44,391 nucleotides of DNA from Escherichia phage vB_EcoS_fPoEco01. Below, in pieces: positions 2,746-42,152 of this stretch (the first letter of the stretch is position 1; each line of letters opens with the position of its first letter). The stretch is taken from the sequence record NC_073317.1; one strand, 5' to 3'. Both the position numbers and the translations under genes were made by a program. Below the pieces are notes generated by a model. The model did no database searches, had not been told where the DNA came from, and saw only the letters and a list, made by a program, of their open reading frames with translations.

Positions 2746-2781
2746 GTTCACATATAGCCCCGAAAGGGGCTTTCTTATAGT

Positions 2782-3858
2782 ATGCTATTAACTTTAGCGC
2801 CACAGGGTTTATCTATGAGCTTACTTACATCTCTAATCAGCCACCAGATATGGCTGCAACGCACTGCATCCGGTGAGGTGAAAGACCTCGCGCCGTTCAT
2901 TAAGGAGATGCGGGACGAAATAAAACGGCAGGTGCTGTTATTCGGTGACGACGGGCGGAGCACTGCGCGACTGAATAAACTGTTACTCGACCTTGAAGAA
3001 GCACTGACGGGGCTTACAGGTGACTGGCAAACAAAGCTGACAGAAGACCTTAAGGAACTGGCCGCATATGAGGCTGAGTGGAACGTAAAAACACTGACCG
3101 CCAACGTTGACGCGGAATTTGTTACGCCTACCGCCGAACAGGTGTGGGCTGCTGCCGAGTTTCAGCCGCTGTCGTTAAGCGACAAGCCCGTCGATTTCAC
3201 TAAGCTGATGGCAGGCTGGGGTGAAACGGAGGCCGCGCGCCTCGTAACCGGCGTTAAGATGGGGTTTGTTCAGGGCCAAACCACACGGCAGATTGTTAAA
3301 AATGTCGTAGGCGCTGGTGGGCTGGCGGACATCTCTGAACGCAACGCGGCTACGGTAATCCGCACCGCGCTGTCTCACGTATCCAACGAAGCCCGCAACG
3401 AGACATACCGCCAGAACGACGACATCATCGAGAAATACGAATGGGTGTCAACGCTGGACAGCCGTACCAGTACGATTTGCAGGGCCAGAGACGGGATGAC
3501 GTGGGAAATCGGTAAAGGTCCGATGCCCCCCGCCCATTTTGGATGTCGAAGTACCACTGCACCGGTAATCAGTTCGGAGTTCGACTTCCTAGATAAAGGT
3601 GCAAAACGCGCGGCTAAGGGTGCGGACGGCGGTATGCAGGTAAGCGCAGACACCACCTATTACGAGTTCCTGAAACAGCAACCGGCATGGTTCGTGGATG
3701 AAGCACTCGGACCTACCCGCGGTGCTATATTCAGGAATAGTGGGATATCCCCAGAGGAATTCCGGGTAATATCCGTCGACGCTTTTGGTAGACCTTTAAC
3801 CTTGAAGGAGATGGCGGCGTTAGATAACAGGGTTGCTGAATATCTTAGGTCGGTATAA
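2782..3858 (+). CDS. head morphogenesis protein (Mu gpF / SPP1 gp7-like)
   Basis: 358 aa; conserved STLDSRTSTICRARDG ... PPAHFGCRST motif typical of Mu F-like minor head proteins; position after portal. Confidence 0.75.
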   Translation: MLLTLAPQGLSMSLLTSLISHQIWLQRTASGEVKDLAPFIKEMRDEIKRQVLLFGDDGRSTARLNKLLLDLEEALTGLTGDWQTKLTEDLKELAAYEAEWNVKTLTANVDAEFVTPTAEQVWAAAEFQPLSLSDKPVDFTKLMAGWGETEAARLVTGVKMGFVQGQTTRQIVKNVVGAGGLADISERNAATVIRTALSHVSNEARNETYRQNDDIIEKYEWVSTLDSRTSTICRARDGMTWEIGKGPMPPAHFGCRSTTAPVISSEFDFLDKGAKRAAKGADGGMQVSADTTYYEFLKQQPAWFVDEALGPTRGAIFRNSGISPEEFRVISVDAFGRPLTLKEMAALDNRVAEYLRSV

Positions 3859-5018: not shown

Positions 5019-5048
5019 AGGCCCCATAATGGGGCCTTAGTTTTATTT
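5019..5048. terminator. bidirectional rho-independent terminator
   Basis: Hairpin AGGCCCC-ataat-GGGGCCT flanked by T-rich tracts on both strands, between convergent genes 4556..5014 (+) and 5043..5564 (-). Confidence 0.55.
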
Positions 5049-5564
5049 AAATCGCGCAGGCATTAACACCATAAAGGCCGTGTTTGAAAATTGTATTTTG
5101 CATCCTCTGGTTTGGTCCTGGAAATCGAAACGAGCAATTTCATTTTTGTATGCCTTAGAAATCTTGTACGCGTCTGCCAAATAGCGCAGAGTGAACCCTA
5201 TACTGTCGACAACACCCGGTGTGATGTGCGCCACGCGTCTCCAGTCAGGAAAGTTTCCTTCTACAACATCTACCGGAAGTGTACATATAAGCGCACGATT
5301 ATCGTCATAGAAAGATACACTGCCGTTGTCGTGGTTTACCTCTGCGTAGTTAAATTTAGAAGGCTCTCTCCCTTTGATGTCTATGAGAGTCCCTTTCTCA
5401 ACGTTGGTCTTCACATTGTCGCAGAACAATCTATGACCGTCCGTAGACACTATCAATCCTTCAGGGTCTATGTAAAAAGCGTTCAAATAGTAGCGAACAT
5501 CATTTTTAGCCCTGCATATTTTCGCCCCTACATACGCAGGGAAAGTAATTACTGTAGTAACCAT
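5043..5564 (-). CDS. hypothetical protein (moron on opposite strand)
   Basis: 173 aa ORF antiparallel to the structural module; own SD AGGAGA, own class I promoter at 5592..5620 and terminator at 5019..5048. Confidence 0.5.
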   Translation of the reverse strand: MVTTVITFPAYVGAKICRAKNDVRYYLNAFYIDPEGLIVSTDGHRLFCDNVKTNVEKGTLIDIKGREPSKFNYAEVNHDNGSVSFYDDNRALICTLPVDVVEGNFPDWRRVAHITPGVVDSIGFTLRYLADAYKISKAYKNEIARFDFQDQTRGCKIQFSNTAFMVLMPARFK

Positions 5565-5591
5565 TTATCATCTCCTGTTTAAGTTAACCGA

Positions 5592-5620
5592 ATAGTACCC
5601 TATTATATTGGGGTGTGCAA
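5592..5620 (-). promoter_or_regulatory. class I sigma70-like promoter (TTGCAC-N17-TACTAT) with embedded AATAG-N4-CTATT palindrome
   Basis: Reverse complement reads TTGCACACCCCAATATAATAGGGTACTATTC; near-identical to elements at 15039..15067, 37339..37367 and 38792..38820. Confidence 0.55.
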
Positions 5621-5686
5621 ACTATTTGTTTACGTATTCCAGTTATTCCACTCAATTGTAAACGTTGGAATAAACTATTCGAATAG

Positions 5687-5715
5687 TTGACTTTTCACTG
5701 AAAATATGATAAGCT
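5687..5715 (+). promoter_or_regulatory. sigma70-like promoter (TTGACT-N17-TGnTAAGCT) driving structured RNA element A
   Basis: TTGACT at 5687..5692, extended -10 TGaTAAGCT at 5707..5715; same architecture at 37030..37058. A CTATTCGAATAG palindrome abuts the -35. Confidence 0.5.
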
Positions 5716-5829
5716 CCACCTGAGCTTGTGAAGTATGAACAAGCGACCGCGGCGCGGGCAGGTAACGGAGCGGGACGTAAGTCCTGAGTGTAGTTACGCT
5801 GACGCGTTCGGAAGGGCCATACTCTATTG
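5716..5829 (+). ncRNA. candidate structured RNA element A (promoter-proximal; paired with copy at 37059..37173)
   Basis: About 115 nt highly similar to 37059..37173 with compensatory changes preserving two stems (GUAAC/GUUAC vs GGAAC/GUUCC; GGAC-GUAA-GUCC vs GUGCC-AUUA-GGCAC) and a conserved hairpin GCUUGU...ACAAGC; no ORF. Confidence 0.45.
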
Positions 5830-5895
5830 CTTGTGTAAAAAGTAACTGGTTTACTGAGATTACGCCGTTTCTATGTTTAAATGATAAGGACTAGC

Positions 5896-5919
5896 GCCCC
5901 GCTTTAAGGCGGGGCTTTA
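5896..5919 (+). terminator. rho-independent terminator downstream of RNA element A
   Basis: GCCCCGC-tttaag-GCGGGGC followed by TTTA; lies between RNA element A and the Rz start. Confidence 0.5.
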
Positions 5920-14997: not shown

Positions 14998-15038
14998 GGT
15001 GTAGCTCCTGTTTGAGTTAACATTGTTGGTGTAAGTGA

Positions 15039-15067
15039 ATAGTATCCTATTATGTTGGGGTGCGCAA
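15039..15067 (-). promoter_or_regulatory. class I promoter (TTGCGC-N17-TACTAT) with AATAG-N4-CTATT palindrome, driving moron operon
   Basis: Reverse complement TTGCGCACCCCAACATAATAGGATACTATTCAC, nearly identical to 37339..37367. Confidence 0.55.
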
Positions 15068-26547: not shown

Positions 26548-26832
26548 TTAACTATAATAGCTCGCTATTAGGTCGTCAACCTGTTTAAACGAACCAACGA
26601 CAAAAACATTTGCACCACGTTTGCTCATCCGCTCGTGCTCTCGTAGCTGATGCGGGTCTGGCTTCGTGTTTTCGTCTTTCTTAACCTCGACAAACCAGAC
26701 TATGCCGCCTGGGAGAATTACCAGCAGGTCGGGAGCACCCACTCTATTTTCGTACGACAATTTGCGTACGAGGCCGCCAATGGCCTCGAATCGGTCTTTT
26801 GCGTATTTCTGTACGCGGCCCTCTTTAGTCAT
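26548..26832 (-). CDS. VRR-NUC domain nuclease
   Basis: About 94 aa from ATG 26832; PDLLVILPGGIVWFVEVKK...QL..H..M...G motif arrangement typical of VRR-NUC. Confidence 0.6.
   Translation of the reverse strand: MTKEGRVQKYAKDRFEAIGGLVRKLSYENRVGAPDLLVILPGGIVWFVEVKKDENTKPDPHQLREHERMSKRGANVFVVGSFKQVDDLIASYYS
26551..26579 (-). promoter_or_regulatory. class II promoter (TTGACG-N17-TATAGT) with AATAG-N4-CTATT palindrome
   Basis: Reverse complement TTGACGACCTAATAGCGAGCTATTATAGT; overlaps the last codons of the VRR-NUC gene; same architecture at 31182..31210 and 33800..33829. Confidence 0.5.
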
Positions 26833-27184: not shown

Positions 27185-30100
27185 TTACTTAGCATAGCGC
27201 TTCATCTCCGCACCTTCCGCGACAAGAGGGAAGCCTTCTGCCCACTCAGGCAACGCGCACATTAATTTTTCCAGCTCGGGCACCGTGTAATCCGGCGTAT
27301 CCGGAGTTTCACATACCAGTTCATCGTGTACCGAAAGCACGATTGGATACCCGCCACCCTCAACATTAATCATCGCATATGCGAGTAGATCACGGCACAG
27401 CGCCTGAACAATGTTTTCACAGGCTTTACCGCCGTGGGTGTACAGGGTAGTCCATTGGCGGGTTAACTGGTTTTCACCTTGGTACTTGATTCGCACATTC
27501 GTGTTTACCCGTCCGTCTTCGTCTGTTTCCTTTGTCACGCTAACTCCGATTCCCGGATACGAAAGGATACGGCCCGACGGCAACTCCACGCACAACCACC
27601 AACCAGGAACCTTCCTACCGGATGAATCAAATTCTACTGTTCTCCATATTCGGATAGCGCGCTCGCCATTCCTGCGCAAGTGTGCTCCCGCCCAAAATTC
27701 ACGACCAGGATTACGCACAGCGGCTAAAATTCCGTCTTTAAGGTCGCGCCAGAACGCTACTGTTTCAGGGTGTGACTCACGCCACATACGCTTGATTGCG
27801 TCGCATGTGCGCCACACTTTCTTGTCCAGAATATACGATGGTCGGTCGTCCTTTTCACCAGGATGCGGTGGTCGCTTTGCTTCCTGGATACGCGCCCATT
27901 CATATCCTCTCGCGGTGGCTGACCAGATGTGGTCCGGGAATGTACCGTCCATTGTTTTAGCCATCTCAATAAGGTCGAGGCCTAAGTTTTTGGCGAACGT
28001 AACGAATGCTCCGACGCCTCCCTCGTAGCCGAGGCCCAGTTCGCAGTTATGCGCCACAAGAAAGCCAGAGTCTGAGGCTATAAGAAAACGGTTGCCGTCT
28101 CCCACATCAATCAGGTCGTACACCGGCTCGCAATAGGTTAATTTCCCGTTCAAGTTCAGCAATGCGGGCAACGGCTGCATCATACTTTCGTTGAAGCTCG
28201 GGTATTTGCCGTCTGTTTCGGCAGTTTTCAGAACGGCTGACAAACCGAATGTTTCCAGGTTCGTAGTTACCGTCTGTGTCGATTCTATCCATTTCGAGGT
28301 TCGGGTCATCCCAGCCTTCCAGAGTTTGAACATATCTAAGAAAAGACCTTTTATCAGTCCTCCACTGGTCGAATACCGTGATGCCTCTTGCCCCATAGTT
28401 TTTATAACCCTTATTCCTGGGGCTTGTTGTTCGCGTGATCGCCGCGGACAGCCGGTTGAGTAATCGCGTTCTGTGCACATCATCCGGCATTGCGTCTTCG
28501 TAGCAGAAATACTGTTTACGATATTTTTTTGTTGCTTCAAGGGCGCAGCGGTTGCATTGAGTGGTTTTACCCGCTCTGACATTGTCATAATAGACCCGCC
28601 CCGGCATCTCTCCGCAATCACATTGGACGAGTAGTTGTCTTTGGCCTTGTCGTTTTGGTAACTCGCGCAGGATAACCAGGCGTCCATACCTCTCTCCAGG
28701 GCGAGGCCCATCATATATCTGTTTGAAGCGAGTTGCTTTGCCTGCTTCCAGGAATGCGCCAAGATTTTGTGGTCTTCTGTCATTAGCACCCCGTCCACAT
28801 TTATTACCGGTTTCCACCCCATAAGGTGCGCGCCTTTTGTATTCACCCATTTTTCACCGCTCCATACTTTATCTGTTGATATAACCGCCATAATATCCTT
28901 AAATCCGCCATCGGTCAAAACTTGGGTATGACGGTGAAGGCACGCTTTACCAATCTGGCGCAAGTCTTTACGTTCTTTCTTAATATCGTCTGGGTCCATG
29001 CCGAACATCTTACCCGCGGTTACGCAGTAAATATCAAGGCCAGCACGGAACGTATCGAGTGCGGTTTCCTCCCCGGCCAGCCACGCAAGCCCTCGTCCTT
29101 CAACGTTAGAGTAATCGGCAACAACAAACTTATGCCCCACTTCCGGTATGATGCAGCTACGTACCGTCGATGCCGTTAGCTTGGCTACATCAAAACGGCG
29201 GTGTGCCCGGCCTTTAAGTAACGCTGAAATGCCTTTATCCAGTTCATCATCGTGATAGTACCCGCGCGCCAGGTTCTGTGGTTGGAAGCCTTTACCCGCC
29301 CACCGCAAAGTGCGTTTTGCCCCACCGTACTGTAAACAACCCCGGCGGCGGTCGTCCGATGAGCGGCCCAACAGCAGTGGGTTATATTTCGTTGACGCGG
29401 TGGATGCGGCCCCGAGGCGCATTTCGATAATCGTGCGAGCATCGTCCGGTAAATCATCGTCCGCCAGCAGGTCGTTAAGCGTAGACTTCTGCGCGTTGTG
29501 GATGCGGTGCGCAGGGGCCAGTTCACGAAGAATCGGCAGAAAGTCCTTACCAGTAAGCGAGCCGCCGTATTTGCGTTGGGCTTCCTCCTGTAACTGCGCT
29601 TTGTGTTTCTCCACGGCTTCAATAGCGGCTTCCGCCAGTGCAACGTCAACCTTAAACCCGCGGTCGTTGATTAACTGGTCCAGTTCCAGTACACGGTCTT
29701 CTAACTCAGAGTTACCCCAACGCGGCAGCTTATGGAAGACTTCACGCATTGCAGTGATGTCGCTCACGGCGTACTTGATGAACAGCGCCCACTCGTCCGG
29801 GTGTGTTTCGGCGGTGTAACGGCGGATTTTGTAGTTCTTTGGCGTAGGTTTGGAGAAACGCTTAATCAGCGCCTTGCCGCGTTTATCTTTCGCGTTATCC
29901 GCAGATACGCCCAGCACTTCGCACAATGCATCGAGAGAACCCGGCAGCGCGTGACGAAACGCCCAAATCATCGTATCAATGGTGTTGCTTACAGGAATAT
30001 CAAAGCCCCAGCAGTGTTTCATGATGAGCCTGTCGAACATTGAGCCGTTGTGCCACACCATCTTAATACGACTGTTCGGCTTAACCAGGCGGCGCAGTGC

Positions 30101-30283
30101 GCGGTGCAAATCACCCGGCATGTCGCTGCCGTCGGTGCAATCCCATACCCGCACAGGCTCGTCGTCAAAAGCATATGTGCAGATAAGCACTTCGGTAGTC
30201 GGGTGTTCGGCGTAAGCGTAGGAGCCGACTTTCTTTAAATCTGCTTCGGAGAATGTTTCAAAGTCCAGGTATAAGTAGCTCAT
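27185..30283 (-). CDS. family A DNA polymerase with 3'-5' exonuclease domain, interrupted by an intein in motif B
   Basis: Exo I LDFETFS; motif A VVADYSNVEGRGLAWLAGE; motif B split as RQIGKA / CELGLGYEGGVGAF by the insert; motif C LSVHDELV. ATG 30283 with SD AAGGA preferred over track TTG at 30337. Confidence 0.8.
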   Translation of the reverse strand: MSYLYLDFETFSEADLKKVGSYAYAEHPTTEVLICTYAFDDEPVRVWDCTDGSDMPGDLHRALRRLVKPNSRIKMVWHNGSMFDRLIMKHCWGFDIPVSNTIDTMIWAFRHALPGSLDALCEVLGVSADNAKDKRGKALIKRFSKPTPKNYKIRRYTAETHPDEWALFIKYAVSDITAMREVFHKLPRWGNSELEDRVLELDQLINDRGFKVDVALAEAAIEAVEKHKAQLQEEAQRKYGGSLTGKDFLPILRELAPAHRIHNAQKSTLNDLLADDDLPDDARTIIEMRLGAASTASTKYNPLLLGRSSDDRRRGCLQYGGAKRTLRWAGKGFQPQNLARGYYHDDELDKGISALLKGRAHRRFDVAKLTASTVRSCIIPEVGHKFVVADYSNVEGRGLAWLAGEETALDTFRAGLDIYCVTAGKMFGMDPDDIKKERKDLRQIGKACLHRHTQVLTDGGFKDIMAVISTDKVWSGEKWVNTKGAHLMGWKPVINVDGVLMTEDHKILAHSWKQAKQLASNRYMMGLALERGMDAWLSCASYQNDKAKDNYSSNVIAERCRGGSIMTMSERVKPLNATAAPLKQQKNIVNSISATKTQCRMMCTERDYSTGCPRRSREQQAPGIRVIKTMGQEASRYSTSGGLIKGLFLDMFKLWKAGMTRTSKWIESTQTVTTNLETFGLSAVLKTAETDGKYPSFNESMMQPLPALLNLNGKLTYCEPVYDLIDVGDGNRFLIASDSGFLVAHNCELGLGYEGGVGAFVTFAKNLGLDLIEMAKTMDGTFPDHIWSATARGYEWARIQEAKRPPHPGEKDDRPSYILDKKVWRTCDAIKRMWRESHPETVAFWRDLKDGILAAVRNPGREFWAGAHLRRNGERAIRIWRTVEFDSSGRKVPGWWLCVELPSGRILSYPGIGVSVTKETDEDGRVNTNVRIKYQGENQLTRQWTTLYTHGGKACENIVQALCRDLLAYAMINVEGGGYPIVLSVHDELVCETPDTPDYTVPELEKLMCALPEWAEGFPLVAEGAEMKRYAK
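28046..28942 (-). mobile_element. intein (299 codons) inserted in DNA polymerase motif B
   Basis: Starts with Cys (CLHRHTQVLTDGG...; block B-like GVLMTEDHKIL), ends ...VYDLIDVGDGNRFLIASDSGFLVAHN followed by +1 Cys; removal restores contiguous motif B. Boundaries verified codon by codon against the DNA. Confidence 0.7.
28107..28850 (-). CDS. HNH-like homing endonuclease ORF nested inside the intein in a different reading frame
   Basis: 247 aa ORF offset by 2 nt from the polymerase frame; ATG preceded by GGAG at 9 nt spacing; C-terminal GW...DRIDTDGNYEPGNIRFVSRSENCRN resembles the HNH_3-type core and the two free-standing paralogs. Confidence 0.6.
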   Translation of the reverse strand: MGEYKRRAPYGVETGNKCGRGANDRRPQNLGAFLEAGKATRFKQIYDGPRPGERYGRLVILRELPKRQGQRQLLVQCDCGEMPGRVYYDNVRAGKTTQCNRCALEATKKYRKQYFCYEDAMPDDVHRTRLLNRLSAAITRTTSPRNKGYKNYGARGITVFDQWRTDKRSFLRYVQTLEGWDDPNLEMDRIDTDGNYEPGNIRFVSRSENCRNRRQIPELQRKYDAAVARIAELEREINLLRAGVRPD

Positions 30284-30435
30284 TTCTTTTTCCTTAAATC
30301 CAGTGCCTTCGTTTCGCTGAGTCTTATTTTCATACAATCACGGCAAATCCACACATGCCTGTACCCGGCGCGGTACTCATCCGCGTACCACGGAAGCGGT
30401 TTCATATATCGGTATACGTGCTTACAGAAAAACAT
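30280..30435 (-). CDS. small Cys-rich protein (51 aa, hypothetical)
   Basis: ATG with SD AAGGG; stop overlaps polymerase ATG (ATGA); contains C-x26-C-x2-C plus His; not in track. Confidence 0.3.
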   Translation of the reverse strand: MFFCKHVYRYMKPLPWYADEYRAGYRHVWICRDCMKIRLSETKALDLRKKK

Positions 30436-31181: not shown

Positions 31182-31210
31182 ACTATAATAGCTAACTATT
31201 CAGGTGTCAA
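31182..31210 (-). promoter_or_regulatory. class II promoter (TTGACA-N17-TATAGT) with AATAG-N4-CTATT palindrome
   Basis: Reverse complement TTGACACCTGAATAGTTAGCTATTATAGT in the 87-bp gap between 31215..32456 and 30495..31127. Confidence 0.55.
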
Positions 31211-32660: not shown

Positions 32661-32914
32661 TGGTCAATTAAATGCCGCGTCTTATGGTCGCAGTGCATAG
32701 CCCACCCATACATCGACTCGAAGACATAAAAGTCTGGCTTGGCGAATGTTGTGCGCTTAATCTGTGACACGTGATGGCCTATATCTTTAGGCCGTGGTAC
32801 TTTGCCTAAGTACGCCATCTCTTCCATCTGGTGCGCACCCGACGGCGCGCGCAACAGCCATAGCGACTCTGTGTTGTCTCGCCTGTCTACGGCGCGGTAG
32901 AGTTGGTAAATCAT
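32642..32914 (-). CDS. hypothetical protein
   Basis: 90 aa ORF in minus-strand replication operon. Confidence 0.35.
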   Translation of the reverse strand: MIYQLYRAVDRRDNTESLWLLRAPSGAHQMEEMAYLGKVPRPKDIGHHVSQIKRTTFAKPDFYVFESMYGWAMHCDHKTRHLIDQWENRV

Positions 32915-33129
32915 TTATCCACCTCATGCATTCTCAAGAAGACAATCATAGCGGCGCGTAGAGGGTTTTCGTGCGTACTTTTGGTGAACGAGGCGGAGTG
33001 ATACGCTCTATATGTGAACGTATGCCGGTTAACCGTAACGCATTCAATTGATATGTGATTATCAATTATTATAGGCCATGCGTCCTCCACCCGATTACAA
33101 TAATCGACTCCTCCGGAAGCTAATTCCAT
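32911..33129 (-). CDS. hypothetical protein
   Basis: 72 aa ORF; start overlaps neighbour. Confidence 0.35.
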   Translation of the reverse strand: MELASGGVDYCNRVEDAWPIIIDNHISIECVTVNRHTFTYRAYHSASFTKSTHENPLRAAMIVFLRMHEVDK

Positions 33130-33224
33130 CTGATGCCCCGCGAAACATTTCCGTATAGCGCGCGGCTGACACGTGCATTGATTCCTATGTCTGTTAAATT
33201 TCCGTAGTTCATAATTCCGACCCT

Positions 33225-33248
33225 CAGTTAAAGCGGCCCGAAGGCCGC
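33225..33248 (-). terminator. putative rho-independent terminator (minus strand)
   Basis: Hairpin GCGGCC-cgaa-GGCCGC just after the stop of 33256..33768; T-rich tail is weak. Confidence 0.35.
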
Positions 33249-33255
33249 GGGATAG

Positions 33256-33768
33256 TTATTCTTCTTCGAAATACTTGTTCTTGATTGCCGTCAGGCGTTC
33301 CAGATACTCCGCCAGGTCTTCGTCTTTAATCGCGGCAATCTTCATCTTCTTACCGGTGAACTCTTCCAGCAGTTCATCAGAATCATCACACGCGGCATCG
33401 CTCGGACCTTCGTTAATGGCGTCGTCGATAGCCTGAATCTGGTCGCGCAGAGACTGGTAATCGACTTCTTCTTCCGGCTCTGGCGTCGGTTCCTCTGCTT
33501 TAGCTTTACGCTGCTTGCGTTTAGGCTTCTCTTCTTCTGCCGGTTTAGTGTCGACGATGTCTTCACCTTCGACTGGGAGTTCTTTCGCCTTCTCGACTTC
33601 TTCAAGTGCTTTAGCCAGTTCTTTTTTAACTGTCTCTACCCCCGTTACTGCGACGTCAACAGTCAATTCACCTACCGACTTACCAGTCGGTTGTCTCGCA
33701 CTGTTCGCAGCAATCAGTTCATGTGCAACTACGAAACGTTCCAGTAATACTAAGAATTTCTCTAACAT
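33256..33768 (-). CDS. highly charged acidic protein (hypothetical)
   Basis: 170 aa; KR-rich centre and acidic C-terminus; SD GAGGAGAG within conserved leader CGAGAGGAGAG. Confidence 0.45.
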   Translation of the reverse strand: MLEKFLVLLERFVVAHELIAANSARQPTGKSVGELTVDVAVTGVETVKKELAKALEEVEKAKELPVEGEDIVDTKPAEEEKPKRKQRKAKAEEPTPEPEEEVDYQSLRDQIQAIDDAINEGPSDAACDDSDELLEEFTGKKMKIAAIKDEDLAEYLERLTAIKNKYFEEE

Positions 33769-33799
33769 TTGTTTCTCTCCTCTCGTTTGGTATGGGCTA

Positions 33800-33829
33800 A
33801 CTATAATAGTGAACTATTCACGTTGTCAA
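33800..33829 (-). promoter_or_regulatory. class II promoter (TTGACA-N18-TATAGT) with AATAG-N4-CTATT palindrome, divergent from cro-like gene
   Basis: Reverse complement TTGACAACGTGAATAGTTCACTATTATAGT; AATAGTTCACTATT is a perfect 14-bp palindrome. Confidence 0.55.
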
Positions 33830-33893
33830 TGGGCTTTTCTAAAATAATTAATATGGTACTATTCACATATCAACTGACTAAGGAGTAATTGAC

Positions 33894-34109
33894 ATGCAAC
33901 CATCTGAACTAGGCATACGTGTAGAACAACGCCGTAAAGAACTCGGCATCTCTCAGCGCCGTCTGGCTGTCCTGGCTGGCGTTTCCCAGGGCGCGATTAA
34001 CCAGCTGGCACTCGGCGTAACTCAGGACGTCCGCCCGGCAACGCTGTTTAAACTGGCGGAAGTGCTGGAAGTAGACGCCAAGTGGCTGGCGTTCGGTGAA
34101 GGGGCTTAA
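33894..34109 (+). CDS. Cro/CI-type HTH (XRE family) DNA-binding protein
   Basis: 71 aa; LGISQRRLAVLAGVSQGAINQL helix-turn-helix; SD AAGGAG; only + strand gene inside the minus-strand replication module. Confidence 0.7.
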   Translation: MQPSELGIRVEQRRKELGISQRRLAVLAGVSQGAINQLALGVTQDVRPATLFKLAEVLEVDAKWLAFGEGA

Positions 34110-34124
34110 CGCCCCTTTCTTTTT
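34101..34124. terminator. rho-independent terminator between convergent genes
   Basis: GGGGC-ttaac-GCCCC followed by TTTCTTTTT. Confidence 0.5.
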
Positions 34125-34126
34125 AC

Positions 34127-36394
34127 CTATTCCAAATCTTCCTCTGTCACTACCAGCATTTCATTCGGTTCGTATATTGTCTTCGGAATCTTGTTATCCG
34201 TTATCCTGGTGTTAAGTCTGTAACGGCCAGGGATTATCTGGTTGTTTTCGTCAGTCCCTGGCACAAGATACCCGGCCTCAACCATTTTCTTAATCTTCCC
34301 ACGTTCTATGGCTTCTTTGGAGTTGAACGCCTTTGCGTTAGGGTCGGACTGTGCGAGCTTATTCGCCGCGGCTACCGTGATGCCCTCGTTGCCGTTGTAG
34401 GTTCCTTCCGCCAGTTCAAACGCCGCCAGTATCGTGGCCTCAGAACTGTTGACAGCATTCTCTACAGTTTTGCGTACGTTTTCTTTACCTTCCTTTGTCA
34501 GCCCTTCTTCCCGCTCTTTCTCCTCGTCAGTTTTGAATGGCTCGAAACCCCACGGCATCAGCACAAGCGCCTTGTGTGGCTCAGGAAGGTCGAGGTTTAC
34601 GATTGTGCCGTACTCCTCTGTGCTACCGATAAACTCAACCGCACGGTATTCTTTCGGCGGCGGGGCTTCACGGAACTGTACAGACTCCAGCACCATACCA
34701 ACCGTCTTCTGTTGAGGTCCGTGCTTAAATTTAGAGTGGTATACATTTATCTGACGGTCGGTTGCGCGTTCAATTGTCAGTTCCACATCGACGCCCGCAT
34801 ACAGCGCCCCACTACCACGGGCCTTCTTTCCACCCTTCGGGGTATGGTGGACGACGCCTACCGCGGCTTTAGTTGTGTCGCGTACTTCTTTCATGATTGC
34901 GATAACTTTACCCATACCGATTGCCGTTGATGAACTGTTCTCGTCGAACTTATCGATCGTCAGGGCCAGCGTCTGGTTGAGGGTGTCAAACGCAACCATG
35001 CCAATAGGTTCATCCCCCGCAGTTTCACGCATCAACTTAATCAGGTTTTTCAGTTTGCCGACTTCACCCATGTCGATGACATGTACATAATCTTTACCTT
35101 CTTCGCCGTATTTAGCCGCGAGTGCATCGATACGTGTACGTGTAGCCGCACCACCTTCACCATCAATATAGAAGTGATGGCAACGCTGGGTATCCGCCCC
35201 GGCAAACCGGTATCCGGAGGCACTCAGGTACATCATACCCAGTGTATAGAACGATTTATACGTGCCGGATTCCCCGACAATATCCCAGATGCAATCCGAC
35301 GGCATGTACCCTTCAACGACGAAATCAGCCTTTACCGGTTCCGGTAGCTCATCCTCTTCTGAGTCCTCGTCGTCTTCCAGGTCGTCCAGGCTGCATGAAA
35401 CTGATTCACGCGCACCCCAACCGATAGCCTCAGCCACTTTACTGAACGGCAGCCCGGTCGCGTCGCACGCATACTTCCACACCTCTTTTGGCGACATGCC
35501 TTCGGTTGCCGTAATGTCGGTGTCGTGAATCATGGTTACGTTCGGCGCTTCGTACCCTTCACGCGGGAAGCACAGCAGGAAGTCATCCGGACGCGGCGTC
35601 GGGTCGCTGTAGTTTTCTGCGTGTTCTGGCGTAGCTGGCATTTTCAGGCCGCGCGGTGTCATGATACCGCCGTACTCGAATGCCAGTGCTTCAAACGCAT
35701 CAGTAAACGCGGTGCGCAGTTCTTCCGGTATCTGGTAATCCGATGCGCTGCTCACCTCATAATCCGGGATGCCTTCCAGCAGACGGTCAGGGTCAATAAG
35801 GTCATTGCGGCGTGACCAGACGACCTCTGAGTTAACCGGCGGCAGGTACATAGGCTGGGACAGAGTGAACCCGCTGTGGTCGGCGCCCATGCCTTTGAAG
35901 AAGTGCTCCAGCAATCCATGACGGACGCGGATGATGTCACCACCTTCAACCGGACGAGCCAGCGGCATGACGACACGAAAGCGCGGCGACTCATCAATAT
36001 GTGACGCCGTGGTATAGAGGCACATGGCTTTACGGCTGCGCTTAACCCGGCGCACCGCTTCCTGGTACTCTTCCGGCGTTGCGCTGTCGAAGTCCAGATA
36101 CGCCAGCGACGATTTGCCTACAGACGCGTCACAGCGATAAAAGAAGCCTTTACGGGCCTGCTTAAAGTCACCTGTTTCCGGGTCTTTTACGGTGCTGTGT
36201 ATAGAATCGCACGCGGCAGTGATATAACCTGGCGCGGTCTTAGGGTTAATCCCGTCACGAACAGCATCAAGCGGCTGAATTAACTCTTTCAGGTCATCCA
36301 GTGTTGCCGTATGTGTGGTTCTGACGTTTATATCCTTTTTCTCCGCCCGCGCGTTGCGACGGGACCACGAGTAGGATAAAATTACATCGGACAT
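34127..36394 (-). CDS. primase-helicase-like replication protein (N-terminal primase-like region, C-terminal RecA-fold ATPase)
   Basis: 755 aa; Walker A GESGTYKS and Walker B-like IGMVAFD in C-terminal half; SD AAGGAAA. Confidence 0.5.
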   Translation of the reverse strand: MSDVILSYSWSRRNARAEKKDINVRTTHTATLDDLKELIQPLDAVRDGINPKTAPGYITAACDSIHSTVKDPETGDFKQARKGFFYRCDASVGKSSLAYLDFDSATPEEYQEAVRRVKRSRKAMCLYTTASHIDESPRFRVVMPLARPVEGGDIIRVRHGLLEHFFKGMGADHSGFTLSQPMYLPPVNSEVVWSRRNDLIDPDRLLEGIPDYEVSSASDYQIPEELRTAFTDAFEALAFEYGGIMTPRGLKMPATPEHAENYSDPTPRPDDFLLCFPREGYEAPNVTMIHDTDITATEGMSPKEVWKYACDATGLPFSKVAEAIGWGARESVSCSLDDLEDDEDSEEDELPEPVKADFVVEGYMPSDCIWDIVGESGTYKSFYTLGMMYLSASGYRFAGADTQRCHHFYIDGEGGAATRTRIDALAAKYGEEGKDYVHVIDMGEVGKLKNLIKLMRETAGDEPIGMVAFDTLNQTLALTIDKFDENSSSTAIGMGKVIAIMKEVRDTTKAAVGVVHHTPKGGKKARGSGALYAGVDVELTIERATDRQINVYHSKFKHGPQQKTVGMVLESVQFREAPPPKEYRAVEFIGSTEEYGTIVNLDLPEPHKALVLMPWGFEPFKTDEEKEREEGLTKEGKENVRKTVENAVNSSEATILAAFELAEGTYNGNEGITVAAANKLAQSDPNAKAFNSKEAIERGKIKKMVEAGYLVPGTDENNQIIPGRYRLNTRITDNKIPKTIYEPNEMLVVTEEDLE

Positions 36395-36452
36395 GTTGTA
36401 TTTCCTTCAGCAAGTAATTTAGCCTCGGCGTTCACCGCGTCGGGGCTTTCTT

Positions 36453-36743
36453 TTATCTTTTAGCCAGACATTCCATCAAATGCTCGTACTTACGGTAATA
36501 ATCTACGACAATCTCATCACCGAAATACTGATACACGTACGCTAAGTGGTCAGAGACATCGATGGAAGCCGACATTGTGCTGAGGCTTCTTAGACTAATC
36601 AACTGCAATTCTTCTGTAACGCAAAACGGCGAATATGAGTCCAGTTTACAGGAAACGTTAAAACACAACGCGTATTCACCTTGCACTAAATAAACCATAT
36701 AAGCATTGTCGTTCTCTTTATCGTGGAAAATTACACCTTTCAT
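36453..36743 (-). CDS. hypothetical protein
   Basis: 96 aa; SD GGAGAA; start overlaps upstream stop. Confidence 0.4.
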   Translation of the reverse strand: MKGVIFHDKENDNAYMVYLVQGEYALCFNVSCKLDSYSPFCVTEELQLISLRSLSTMSASIDVSDHLAYVYQYFGDEIVVDYYRKYEHLMECLAKR

Positions 36744-36922
36744 TTCACGTTCTCCTTAATCCACGCTTCAACTTTATTGCGGTCGAATGTCCCTGGTAAA
36801 CGGCGGCCCATAACCTTAATACAGCAATCCGGGAATTTGCCACTGCGCAACCAGTTATTAATTGTCTGACGTGTCACCCCGATACGTTCAGCTACTTCAT
36901 TCTGGGTCATGTAATGCTGCAT
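36740..36922 (-). CDS. small HTH DNA-binding protein (AlpA/excisionase-like)
   Basis: 60 aa from ATG 36922 (SD GGAGAT); MTQNEVAERIGVTRQTINNWLRSGKFP helix-turn-helix. Confidence 0.55.
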   Translation of the reverse strand: MQHYMTQNEVAERIGVTRQTINNWLRSGKFPDCCIKVMGRRLPGTFDRNKVEAWIKENVK

Positions 36923-37029
36923 TTTTATATCTCCTGTTTGTTTAGTGGAACCGAGTATAGGATAGCGGGAATGTAAAAGCAACCAAAACTGAACACAAAG
37001 TTACTAAGATGCAAAAGATGCTACTGGTA

Positions 37030-37058
37030 TTGACTTTTACTTAAAAATATGCTAAGCT
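37030..37058 (+). promoter_or_regulatory. sigma70-like promoter (TTGACT-N17-TGnTAAGCT) driving structured RNA element B
   Basis: TTGACT 37030..37035, TGcTAAGCT 37050..37058; same architecture as 5687..5715. Confidence 0.5.
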
Positions 37059-37173
37059 TCACTGAGCTTGTGAGATATCGCAAGCGACCGCGGAGCGGCA
37101 GGGAACGCAACGCGTGCCATTAGGCACTTGAGTGTAGTTCCGCTGGCGCTTTCGGAAGGGCCAAAGTCTATTG
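37059..37173 (+). ncRNA. candidate structured RNA element B (second copy of element at 5716..5829)
   Basis: See element A; shared core GAGCUUGUGA...CAAGCGACCGCGG...GAGUGUAGUU.CGCUG.CGC.UUCGGAAGGGCCA with compensatory substitutions in two stems. Confidence 0.45.
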
Positions 37174-37338
37174 TTAATCCCGCCTAAATACCCAAGCCAC
37201 TGATAATTAAAAGTTTCTATAGTTGCCGTAAGCAAGGTAGAGAGTACTTCACTCCGCTGGGGTGGGCTAACGCCCACCCACTGCGTTGCGTACTCTTTTA
37301 AGAAACGAAAGAATCACAACGGCAACGTAACTATTTTC

Positions 37339-37367
37339 TTGCACACCCCAACATAATAGGATACTAT
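37339..37367 (+). promoter_or_regulatory. class I promoter (TTGCAC-N17-TACTAT) with AATAG-N4-CTATT palindrome; start of rightward early operon
   Basis: TTGCACACCCCAACATAATAGGATACTATTCAC, 25 nt upstream of the first early ORF. Confidence 0.55.
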
Positions 37368-37392
37368 TCACTTATCGAAACGAGACAGATGA

Positions 37393-38791: not shown

Positions 38792-38820
38792 TTGCACACT
38801 GGGATAGAATAGGCTACTAT
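38792..38820 (+). promoter_or_regulatory. class I promoter (TTGCAC-N17-TACTAT) with AATAG-N4-CTATT palindrome
   Basis: TTGCACACTGGGATAGAATAGGCTACTAT upstream of repeat-containing ORF 38852..39034. Confidence 0.55.
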
Positions 38821-38851
38821 TCATTTACACAAACGAGAGGAGAGGCAGAAT

Positions 38852-42069: not shown

Positions 42070-42091
42070 ATCTATTTTCTGCAATGACTAG

Positions 42092-42120
42092 TTGACTATT
42101 AACATCGACCCTATTATATT
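42092..42120 (+). promoter_or_regulatory. sigma70-like promoter (TTGACT-N17-TATATT)
   Basis: Immediately after terminator and upstream of conserved leader CGAGAGGAGAGGCAGA and ATG 42153. Confidence 0.45.
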
Positions 42121-42152
42121 TACTCCATCGACAACGAGAGGAGAGGCAGAGA

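Follow-up and report, generated by a model that had tools for sequence, protein, structure and literature searches.

Cro of phage 434 is a 71-residue protein with an all-helical, five-helix HTH fold that binds 14-bp palindromic operators as a dimer. These operators, whose outer arms are conserved and whose centre varies, are placed over early promoters, and the cro gene points rightward, away from a recombination operon that runs leftward. The controller (C) proteins of restriction-modification (R-M) systems are likewise small XRE-type HTH dimers with a palindromic site on their own promoter. They act as delay timers and use paired adjacent operator sites, through which activation is followed by repression. 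The small immunity repressor of the mycobacteriophage L5 type has many “stoperators” dispersed across the genome of this temperate phage, which are asymmetric, orientation-dependent 13-bp sites within transcribed regions. Cro-like genes have also been described in virulent phages devoid of a lysogeny module (PMC4632378, PMC11551762, PMC13575424); for example, virulent Streptococcus thermophilus phages and Staphylococcus phage SA97 are reported to carry a small Cro-type HTH gene in an early divergent region without integrase or CI. These are Gram-positive siphophages, and they are unrelated in sequence to the phage studied here. We know of no description of a genome-wide set of promoter-overlapping operators for phages of this type.

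The window analyzed here is the complete 44,391-bp genome of Escherichia phage vB_EcoS_fPoEco01 (NC_073317.1), a Kagunavirus, and it contains a divergent locus that takes on several of these properties. As in 434, a five-helix HTH protein of 71 aa is encoded by a rightward gene that points away from a leftward recombination operon, and 14-bp palindromes, conserved in their outer arms and variable in the centre, lie over early promoters. The likeness to lambdoid phages extends to nin-region relatives in this genome (NinX and NinH) and to the replication genes that follow the Cro-like gene in sister lineages. Unlike in 434, no cI gene is located between the promoters, each promoter carries a single palindrome with no tandem tripartite array (OR1-3/OL1-3) for cooperative, differential occupancy, the sites are found on about 10 promoters genome-wide instead of two, and the phage is obligately lytic and devoid of an integrase. 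The arm sequence is AATAG, compared to ACAA in 434. The model proposed below shares with C proteins the small dimer, the palindrome on its own promoter, and the timing function. In contrast to C proteins, no R-M genes are adjacent, the neighbors being a helicase-primase gene and the gene of a 170-aa protein, and the palindromes are single and in repressing positions. The parallel to L5 is that of one small phage repressor with many dispersed genome sites, with the difference being that the sites here are palindromes on promoters of a virulent phage.

The divergent promoter region and its Cro-like gene

The features of the locus are as follows.

33256..33768, minus strand: first gene of the leftward operon, 170-aa acidic protein with a conserved N-terminal helix
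33800..33829, minus strand: sigma-70 promoter P_left, -35 TTGACA (33829-33824), 18-nt spacer, -10 TATAGT (33805-33800)
33805..33818, no strand: candidate operator OA, AATAGTGAACTATT, in the P_left spacer with a 1-nt overlap with the -10
33809..33821, no strand: palindrome GTGAACTATTCAC, overlapping OA, judged coincidental
33850..33863, no strand: candidate operator OB, AATATGGTACTATT, with one mismatch, over the -10 of P_right
33854..33862, plus strand: promoter P_right as read from the sequence, extended -10 TGgTACTAT without a good -35
33880..33885, plus strand: Shine-Dalgarno sequence AAGGAG, 8 nt upstream of the Cro-like ATG
33894..34109, plus strand: Cro-like gene, 71-aa single-domain HTH_3 protein
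34098..34126, plus strand: intrinsic terminator after the Cro-like gene, hairpin GAAGGGGCTTAACGCCCCTTT and T-run

The leftward ORF, which starts with an ATG at 33768, and the rightward ORF are separated by a gap of 125 bp (33769-33893). A first-pass annotation had proposed a divergent promoter region between a leftward operon and a Cro-like gene, and two back-to-back promoter-like sequences are indeed present; all of its elements, the AAGGAG sequence included, were recovered at coordinates that were exact or off by at most 1 nt. The Cro-like gene is, as had also been stated, the sole plus-strand gene amid minus-strand genes, over roughly 24.9-37.0 kb. The AAGGAG sequence is kept in Kaguna- and Jerseyviruses, with single-base variants in two sequences. 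The terminator renders the Cro-like gene monocistronic, and a terminator is annotated at the equivalent place in phage phi135. Neither the whole window nor the segment 36990-37400 gave any match to Rfam.

P_left matches the sigma-70 consensus at 11 of 12 positions, which makes it the top-scoring promoter within 32.8-38.8 kb and joint first in a genome-wide consensus scan. Both of its hexamers are conserved in 32 Kagunavirus relatives, and transcription is predicted to start near 33793. In P_right (predicted start near 33869), TG and TACTAT are conserved among relatives, with g, a, or c as the base between them; TACTAT is also the -10 of four class I promoters described below. A promoter was sought for the leftward helicase-primase/HTH_17 operon, and none was found.

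Each of the two promoters is overlapped by one copy of a 14-bp palindrome, AATAG-N4-CTATT. OA fits this pattern perfectly; its arms are invariant among relatives and its centre is variable. OB is essentially invariant in 32 Kagunavirus sequences, the two single-base changes both being located in the centre, and its one mismatch, a T at position 5, gives rise to the TG in the extended -10. Both copies are part of an 18-nt direct repeat. They are 45 bp apart here, but many relatives have 44 bp between them and Jerseyvirus has about 55 bp; thus, the spacing is not conserved.

The operator had been framed differently in the first-pass annotation. The perfect palindrome that it assigned to the class II promoter of the interval, GTGAACTATTCAC, exists and has perfect 5-nt arms, but it is neither enriched nor conserved. 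GTGAA-N3-TTCAC has three matches in the genome with 1.2 expected, and three matches were reached in 14 of 100 shuffles. Among 32 close relatives it is not kept, its arms varying to GCGAA, GCTAA, or GCAAA on one side and to TTCAG or TTCAT on the other. The additional half-site, ACTATTCAC, is present at 33858-33866 instead of 33857-33865, but belongs to the second full palindrome, OB. As an independent 9-mer it is not enriched genome-wide (13 copies, 8.4 expected), and it becomes meaningful only when read as right arm plus flank of the 14-mer.

The 71-aa protein, which the first-pass annotation had called Cro-like, is 434-Cro-like by sequence and fold. It matches Pfam HTH_3 (E 2.3e-12), and its best PDB sequence match is 434 Cro (E 5.4e-7, residues 6-68). 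The AF2 model has five helices with a mean pLDDT of 84, and the top Foldseek match is 2cro (TM 0.73-0.79, 40% identity); the C-proteins C.AhdI, C.BclI, and C.Esp1396I are among the further structural neighbors. The protein ends with a stop at 34107-34109 and has no C-terminal S24 or oligomerization domain, whereas more distant, longer relatives are full CI-type HTH_3 + Peptidase_S24 repressors. Palindromes of about 14 bp over early promoters including the gene's own, as expected of the operators of a 434-Cro/XRE type, are present. An operator on its own promoter is expected of an autoregulated Cro/CI-type or other XRE-family repressor. A trait of XRE-type antitoxins (HipB/HigA-like) is absent, since the monocistronic Cro-like gene has no co-transcribed toxin gene.

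The gene on the other side of the region does not take the place of a CI gene (HTH + S24), which is absent. The 170-aa protein has no Pfam match and no match to a DNA-binding domain, to HTH, or to S24. It is assigned to PHROG 3127 (labelled “unknown function”) and has homologs in all four genera compared; public records carry it as “13.88 kDa late protein” or as hypothetical. A homology search directed at a role as second regulator gave close relatives only, which carry no annotation. The term “switch-like” used for this region is therefore not supported, as it implies two antagonistic regulators and the locus has only one. With one regulator, the architecture looks like negative feedback or early shut-off and not like a bistable switch.

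A palindrome shared by promoters throughout the genome

At up to one mismatch, AATAG-N4-CTATT occurs 11 times in the genome (1.23 expected), a number that was not reached in any of 100 shuffles. In an unbiased enumeration of palindromes, it ranks first with seven perfect copies, the next best having three; several of the runners-up are G+C-rich and coincide with terminator hairpins. The copies outside the divergent region are listed here.

2776..2789: one mismatch, no clear promoter, between portal and head-morphogenesis genes, membership uncertain
5591..5604: perfect, class I promoter TTGCAC-17-TACTAT leftward, before a sliding-clamp-like gene (5043-5564)
5682..5695: one mismatch, over the -35 (TTGACT) of TTGACT-17-TAAGCT, promoter rightward
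15038..15051: perfect, class I promoter leftward, before phosphoesterase genes clustered within the tail-gene region
26556..26569: perfect, in the spacer of a leftward class II promoter, TTGACG-17-TATAGT, ahead of the helicase operon
31187..31200: perfect, in the spacer of a leftward class II promoter, TTGACA-17-TATAGT, ahead of the genes for ssDNA-binding protein and DNA polymerase
37355..37368: perfect, class I promoter rightward, before small rightward genes
38808..38821: perfect, class I promoter rightward
42087..42100: one mismatch, over the -35 of TTGACT-17-TATATT rightward

A recognizable sigma-70-type promoter is overlapped by 10 of the 11 copies, which, besides P_left and P_right, lie on the -10, spacer, or -35 of eight further promoters. 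Half of the ten best sigma-70 consensus matches of the genome carry the palindrome, including both 11-of-12 matches. In class I promoters the right arm falls on the -10, whereas class II promoters have the palindrome about 5 nt further upstream, within the spacer. Each arm position carries about 2 bits, whereas centre and remaining spacer are variable; in 32 relatives the arms are invariant and the centre varies. The two registers relative to -35 and -10, together with arms that are fixed while the centre varies, indicate that the palindrome is independent of sigma-70 recognition. The seven perfect sites belong to early, accessory, and replication promoters, and the one-mismatch sites to the cro promoter and to rightward promoters towards late genes. 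The promoter at 42087 is downstream of the lysis genes and is directed towards terminase and structural genes; its orthologous site in Jerseyvirus is also imperfect, with the mismatch in the opposite arm.

The palindrome is found at orthologous positions across genera with differing centres. Jerseyvirus Ent3 has eight sites (1.16 expected) and phiEap-2 has ten (0.96 expected). In another lineage, L050, which was compared over its stored 12.7 kb, a variant with both arms changed, AATAC-N4-GTATT, occurs four times (0.24 expected), including both sites that flank its cro-like gene; this variant is not enriched in the window. Such a symmetric change of both arms points to a dimeric, phage-specified binding protein. 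The Cornellvirus VSiP has a 43%-identical Cro-like homolog and the same promoter layout, but no palindrome. A Cornellvirus-specific palindrome was sought and none was enriched; only the half-site AACTATT was enriched in Cornellvirus intergenic DNA. In phiEap-2, VSiP, and L050, the Cro-like gene is the first gene of a rightward operon with the replicative helicase-primase, which mirrors the lambdoid PR-cro-replication layout.

The Cro-like gene is the only DNA-binding gene that was found in every palindrome-bearing lineage. A presence/absence screen of all window ORFs for DNA-binding genes shared with Ent3 and phiEap-2 and missing in VSiP gave no clean candidate. Covariation between recognition helix and operator, for which 127 extra loci from viral and metagenome collections were used, is suggestive but not clean: a symmetric G/C swap is seen in L050 (helix TQGGIGHIV) and L087 and partly in L092, but variants of the operator cannot be assigned cleanly to residues of the recognition helix, and Kaguna- and Jerseyviruses have identical arms despite helices that differ at about four positions.

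Proposed circuit and alternative readings

With moderate confidence, the locus is read as an immunity region without cI, in which an autoregulated Cro-only repressor turns down the early and replication promoters in lytic growth. P_left would drive the leftward recombination and replication operon, and P_right the monocistronic, terminator-bounded Cro-like gene. At infection, host RNA polymerase would fire all palindrome-bearing promoters. Subsequently, the Cro-like protein would build up, bind the palindromes as a dimer, and occlude RNA polymerase, by which early and replication transcription would be turned down, eventually including that of its own gene. The Cro proteins of lambda and 434 act in the same way at PL and PR in lytic growth. 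A CI partner, an integrase, or bistability would not be involved. We infer all three elements of this circuit, namely binding of the Cro-like protein to the palindromes, repression as the outcome, and the timing. The co-occurrence of gene and palindrome across lineages and the symmetric arm variant indirectly support binding as a dimer. A timing role is plausible from operator position and known family behavior, and the pattern of perfect and one-mismatch sites fits a graded occupancy that orders shut-off in time.

Evidence against this circuit comes from the VSiP homolog without palindromes and from the covariation that is not clean. In addition, if nearly every promoter has a site, global repression would also hit late genes; graded affinity is the only answer offered to this problem and is put forward as an idea. 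Coarse RNA-seq data of a Kagunavirus show that a “specific DNA binding” gene beside an AAA-domain gene peaks in the middle and not the early phase (PMC12645636). This gene may be the Cro-like gene, the gene numbers of the phage, K1B4 (reads PRJNA939978 / PRJCA028359), being mapped without certainty. A wider form of the model is speculative and probably goes too far: a single Cro-only repressor with about ten graded operators would set the whole temporal program of the host-RNA-polymerase-dependent Guernseyvirinae, and might reversibly silence the genome under some conditions.

The alternative that survives best, though it is rather unlikely, is that the palindromes are operators of another protein, with the Cro-like protein regulating its own locus only, or something else. 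A second phage protein, a host factor, or the product of the following gene would then be the binding protein.

36740..36982, minus strand: small HTH gene, HTH_17 (excisionase/MerR-like), true start probably the ATG at about 36922

The protein of only about 60-80 aa matches Pfam HTH_17 (E 4e-8) and weakly MerR_1 (E 0.0045). Its gene is found in Kaguna- and Jerseyvirus only, exactly the two genera with the sharpest palindromes, and is absent from VSiP. MerR-type regulators bind the spacer between -35 and -10, where the class II palindrome is located. Cornellvirus, with a Cro-like gene and no palindromes, also fits this alternative, and so does the HTH-domain gene that is among only four early genes in the K1B4 RNA-seq data (PMC12645636). 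Set against this, no HTH_17 homolog was detected in phiEap-2 with its ten palindromes or in the stored 12.7 kb of L050 with its variant palindrome. MerR-type activation acts on spacers of 19-20 bp, and the type has coiled-coil dimerization and an effector domain. The promoter spacers here measure 17-18 bp, which is near optimal, and the HTH_17 protein is of the small size given above. A host factor could not explain the lineage-specific symmetric change of the arms, and two copies flanking the cro-like gene are a typical signature of autoregulation.

It is distinctly unlikely that the motif is part of a duplicated promoter family (“phage promoters”, PHIRE) without a dedicated regulator, being kept by shared ancestry or by the tuning of host RNA polymerase recognition. 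The genome literature lists the motif among promoters, with the consensus tgAATAGTa-ccTATTat-T (PMC9825357). Over a stretch of about 33 bp, class I promoters are nearly the same, non-palindromic spacer bases included, which suggests duplication, and their right arm overlaps the -10. However, both arms are kept in two registers relative to -35 and -10, and in class II promoters both fall within the spacer, a part with which sigma-70 has no base-specific contacts. The centre and adjacent spacer bases vary freely around fixed arms, and in L050 both arms are changed symmetrically. The “phage promoter” motif was previously attributed to a phage RNA polymerase, and none is annotated in the relatives' genomes examined.

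An activator or dual activator-repressor similar to C proteins, which would be needed to turn on some promoters, is improbable to a still greater degree. The C-proteins among the structural neighbors and the two sites that overlap a -35 region (5682 and 42087) are in its favor. Most of the palindromes lie over the -10 or spacer of promoters whose sigma-70 matches are already 9-11 of 12, a position that occludes RNA polymerase, and paired adjacent operator sites of the C-protein kind are absent.

A true dormancy switch (lysogeny or pseudolysogeny), in which the repressor silences the whole genome in a carrier or episomal state, is hardly credible: most recognizable promoters carry an operator-like palindrome and the distant relatives of the Cro-like protein are CI repressors, but the complete genome lacks an integrase, genes for partition or plasmid maintenance, an S24 domain, an antirepressor, and a tRNA/att site, and repression of the repressor's own promoter would leave no positive autoregulation to hold a silent state.

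Lytic lifestyle and meaning for the Guernseyvirinae

The first-pass annotation had recognized no integrase, CI-like peptidase repressor, or attachment site and had pointed to the true flanks of the genome as a possible location of a lysogeny module. As the window is the complete genome, no such flanks are left, and neither an integrase or attachment site nor another prophage-maintenance function was found in it or in the annotation of relatives. The close relative fFiEco02, which is 97.6% identical over window positions 33000-35000, has no annotated integrase, S24-peptidase repressor, or RNA polymerase, and none of the window-specific segments is large enough for a lysogeny gene. A tRNA search of the genome found none. 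No lysogeny genes are reported in the Kagunavirus genome papers on fBC-Eco01 and VB_EcoS-Golestan. With a complete genome that is devoid of integrase, CI, and att-type tRNA, a lysogeny switch is effectively excluded.

Guernseyvirinae, with about 480 public genomes, include the Kaguna- and Jerseyviruses and are among the phages that are most often isolated for therapy and biocontrol, and a literature search found no experimental work on their regulation. If the motif is the operator of a 434-Cro-like repressor, these phages would offer a cheap-to-test model of how early transcription is ordered or limited. This reading would also explain the “repressor” labels in GenBank records of phages without reported lysogeny genes, which bears on their safety assessment. 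The biology is expected and not surprising: the best reading is an ordinary Cro-type shut-off circuit, which would add a further case to the already known Cro-type regulation and give an example of an immunity region with cro and without cI.

The divergent interval and its Cro-like gene

The two divergent ORFs are separated by 125 bp, as the first-pass annotation had stated, and the rightward ORF is preceded by the AAGGAG Shine-Dalgarno sequence described there (33880-33885, with the ATG 8 nt further on). The Cro-like gene is indeed alone on the plus strand between about 24.9 and 37.0 kb.

Features of the divergent interval
33256-33768, minus strand: leftward ORF (ORF call)
33829-33824 and 33805-33800, minus strand: leftward promoter P_left, -35 TTGACA and -10 TATAGT with an 18-nt spacer
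33854-33862, plus strand: extended -10 TGgTACTAT of the Cro-like gene promoter
33894-34109, plus strand: rightward Cro-like ORF (ORF call)
34098-34126, plus strand: hairpin and T-run at the end of the Cro-like gene

P_left matches 11 of the 12 sigma-70 consensus positions and is the top match in 32.8-38.8 kb as well as, in a separate scan of our own, the joint best match genome-wide. Upstream of the extended -10 of the Cro-like gene no good -35 is seen on the plus strand; among 32 Kagunavirus relatives its TG and TACTAT are fixed and the base between them is variable. Since the Cro-like gene ends in a hairpin and T-run, it forms a self-contained monocistronic cassette. The Cro-like and helicase-primase genes converge on this hairpin, whose T-run is on the plus strand only, so transcripts coming leftward may cross the Cro-like gene in antisense and reach P_left. 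No promoter for the leftward helicase-primase operon was found upstream of 36982. A leader that includes the RBS, AACGAGAGGAGAG, is common to the first genes of several transcription units (33776-33788, minus strand; about 38836-38848 and 42133-42145, both plus strand).

The 71-aa product of the rightward gene belongs to the HTH_3 family, and among solved structures 434 Cro, likewise of 71 aa, is its best sequence match (E 5.4e-7). Its single-sequence AF2 model has five helices (mean pLDDT 84) and finds 2cro as the top Foldseek match, which bears out the Cro-like identity first proposed. A conserved C-terminal motif links it to more distant relatives that are complete repressors of the CI type, in which HTH_3 is joined to Peptidase_S24. 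As for the divergent 170-aa protein, it is acidic and gave no match to a DNA-binding domain. The locus thus offers no sign of a second regulator, and the term "switch" used in the first-pass annotation was too strong.

A 14-bp palindrome on promoters across the genome

The half-site ACTATTCAC noted earlier occurs in two copies, at 33813-33821 and at 33858-33866, the latter 1 nt off the coordinates first reported. Both copies lie within a direct repeat of 18 nt (TAATAGTGAACTATTCAC and TAATATGGTACTATTCAC, spacing 45 bp), the core of which is the 14-bp palindrome AATAG-N4-CTATT. If one mismatch is allowed, this palindrome has 11 copies in the genome versus 1.23 expected, a count reached in none of 100 shuffles. 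When gapped palindromes in the window were enumerated without bias, it also came first (seven perfect copies); the next-best palindromes have three copies each, and several of these have a high G+C content and fall on terminator hairpins. The arms are invariant among close relatives. Profiles built from distinct site sequences (163 from Kagunavirus, 53 from Jerseyvirus) give each arm position about 2 bits, with little information in the centre or the adjoining spacer. The palindrome favored at first, GTGAA-N3-TTCAC (GTGAACTATTCAC, 33809-33821), does exist with perfect 5-nt arms, but it is not enriched and both arms vary among close relatives; it was therefore rejected as the relevant element.

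Palindrome copies and their promoters
5591 (-), 15038 (-), 37355 (+), 38808 (+): class I promoters, TTGCAC-17-TACTAT
26556 (-), 31187 (-), 33805 (-, the copy OA at P_left): class II promoters, TTGACA/G-17/18-TATAGT
5682, 42087: overlapping a -35 TTGACT
2776: without a clear promoter

In class I the right arm of the palindrome falls on the -10, a register shared by OB, the copy at the Cro-like promoter. In class II the palindrome sits about 5 nt further upstream, nearly all within the spacer. Because both arms are kept in different registers relative to the -35 and -10, the palindrome is not simply a part of sigma-70 recognition. Early, accessory, and replication promoters carry the seven perfect sites; sites with one mismatch are found at the cro promoter and at those rightward promoters that lead to late genes. 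At the cro promoter the mismatch supplies the TG of the extended -10, and all 32 relatives share it. The late-promoter site is imperfect in Kagunavirus and in Jerseyvirus alike, with the mismatch in opposite arms.

Two paralogous non-coding elements (5687-5915 and 37034-37300, plus strand; 72% column identity) are each preceded by a promoter TTGACT-17-TAAGCT. The second folds better than 200 of 200 shuffles (z -3.1). Rfam gave no match to either, even with the cutoff relaxed to E<=1, and the pair are candidate small RNAs of the phage. A long non-coding stretch of similar kind lies downstream of a perfect TTGACA-17-TATAAT promoter in Cornellvirus VSiP (L005:6269-6755).

Palindromes and candidate regulators in related lineages

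Jerseyvirus Ent3 carries eight palindromes (1.16 expected) at orthologous promoter positions, with arms often lengthened to TAATAG/CTATTA, and phiEap-2 carries 10 (0.96 expected). In the uncultured lineage L050/L087 the arms are symmetrically altered to AATAC-N4-GTATT, which has four sites versus 0.24 expected (0 of 200 shuffles reach four) and is not enriched in the window; two of the four are those at the divergent promoters of its cro-like gene. A symmetric change at multiple sites is the outcome expected if a phage-encoded protein that binds as a dimer had shifted its specificity. The correspondence between operator variants and recognition-helix residues is not clean. The whole VSiP genome holds no AATAG-N4-CTATT (0.99 expected) and no other enriched palindrome was found there; its intergenic DNA is enriched for the half-site AACTATT alone. 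Two direct copies of GTGAATAGTTAT lie among such half-sites at about 37160-37200, and VSiP retains the cro-like gene and the back-to-back promoters despite lacking palindromes.

Each of the four genera compared has a Cro-like homolog. Just one other small HTH gene lies nearby, the HTH_17 gene (36740-36982); it is confined to Kaguna- and Jerseyvirus and is absent from phiEap-2, although phiEap-2 has palindromes. Genome papers using PHIRE report the motif as a set of seven "phage promoters" (consensus tgAATAGTa-ccTATTat-T), which they assign to an RNA polymerase of the phage (PMC9825357); no such enzyme is annotated in the relatives' genomes examined.

Genome setting and proposed mechanism

The window matches Kagunavirus genomes (subfamily Guernseyvirinae), with 97.6% identity of 33000-35000 to Escherichia phage vB_EcoS_fFiEco02, and is itself the complete phage genome, with no flanks missing. 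The large terminase subunit is the first annotated gene in fFiEco02, at the same starting point, and the small-terminase gene runs across the record ends in that annotation. Segments not aligning to fFiEco02 are short (intein, tape-measure variation, small early genes). The annotations of fFiEco02 and Ent3 contain no integrase, S24 repressor, or RNA polymerase, no tRNA was found in the window, and two Kagunavirus genome papers (fBC-Eco01, VB_EcoS-Golestan) report no lysogeny genes. A lysogeny switch, already doubted in the first-pass annotation, is therefore very unlikely. The DNA polymerase ORF (27185-30337, minus strand) encodes 1050 aa versus 733 aa in fFiEco02; its extra ~0.9 kb (28046-28940) aligns at 93% to the polymerase of Ent3, which has an annotated intein.

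In phiEap-2, VSiP, and L050 the cro-like gene precedes the replicative helicase-primase gene in the same orientation; in Kaguna- and Jerseyvirus the module is inverted, which is why the Cro-like gene stands alone on the plus strand.

Helicase-primase module
34127-36982: window
L004:37244-39897: phiEap-2
L005:34477-37128: VSiP
L050:2507-4632: uncultured lineage

Together with homologs of NinX and NinH, the layout of phiEap-2, VSiP, and L050 (a leftward nuclease/ssDNA-binding protein/polymerase operon, back-to-back promoters, cro, and a replication gene, in a PR-cro-replication order) resembles a lambdoid immunity region without a cI gene. The homologs of these lambdoid nin-region genes, NinX (32911-33129, minus strand, Pfam E 5e-7) and NinH (about 43.4-43.6 kb, plus strand, annotated in fFiEco02), fit a lambdoid ancestry of the early region.

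No experimental work on the Cro-like regulator was found in the literature searched. For Kagunavirus K1B4, a coarse time course by RNA-seq counts an HTH-domain gene as one of four early genes and assigns a "specific DNA binding" gene beside the AAA-domain gene to the middle class, with uncertain correspondence of both to the window (PMC12645636).

From operator position and the known behavior of the family, we infer a mechanism in which host RNA polymerase would initiate at all palindrome-bearing promoters until the Cro-like dimer builds up and occludes them, its own promoter included. The distribution of perfect and one-mismatch sites is consistent with a graded shut-off. On this reading the phage would have an autoregulated repressor of the Cro type, whose operators overlap promoters and are dispersed over a virulent phage genome that has no CI.
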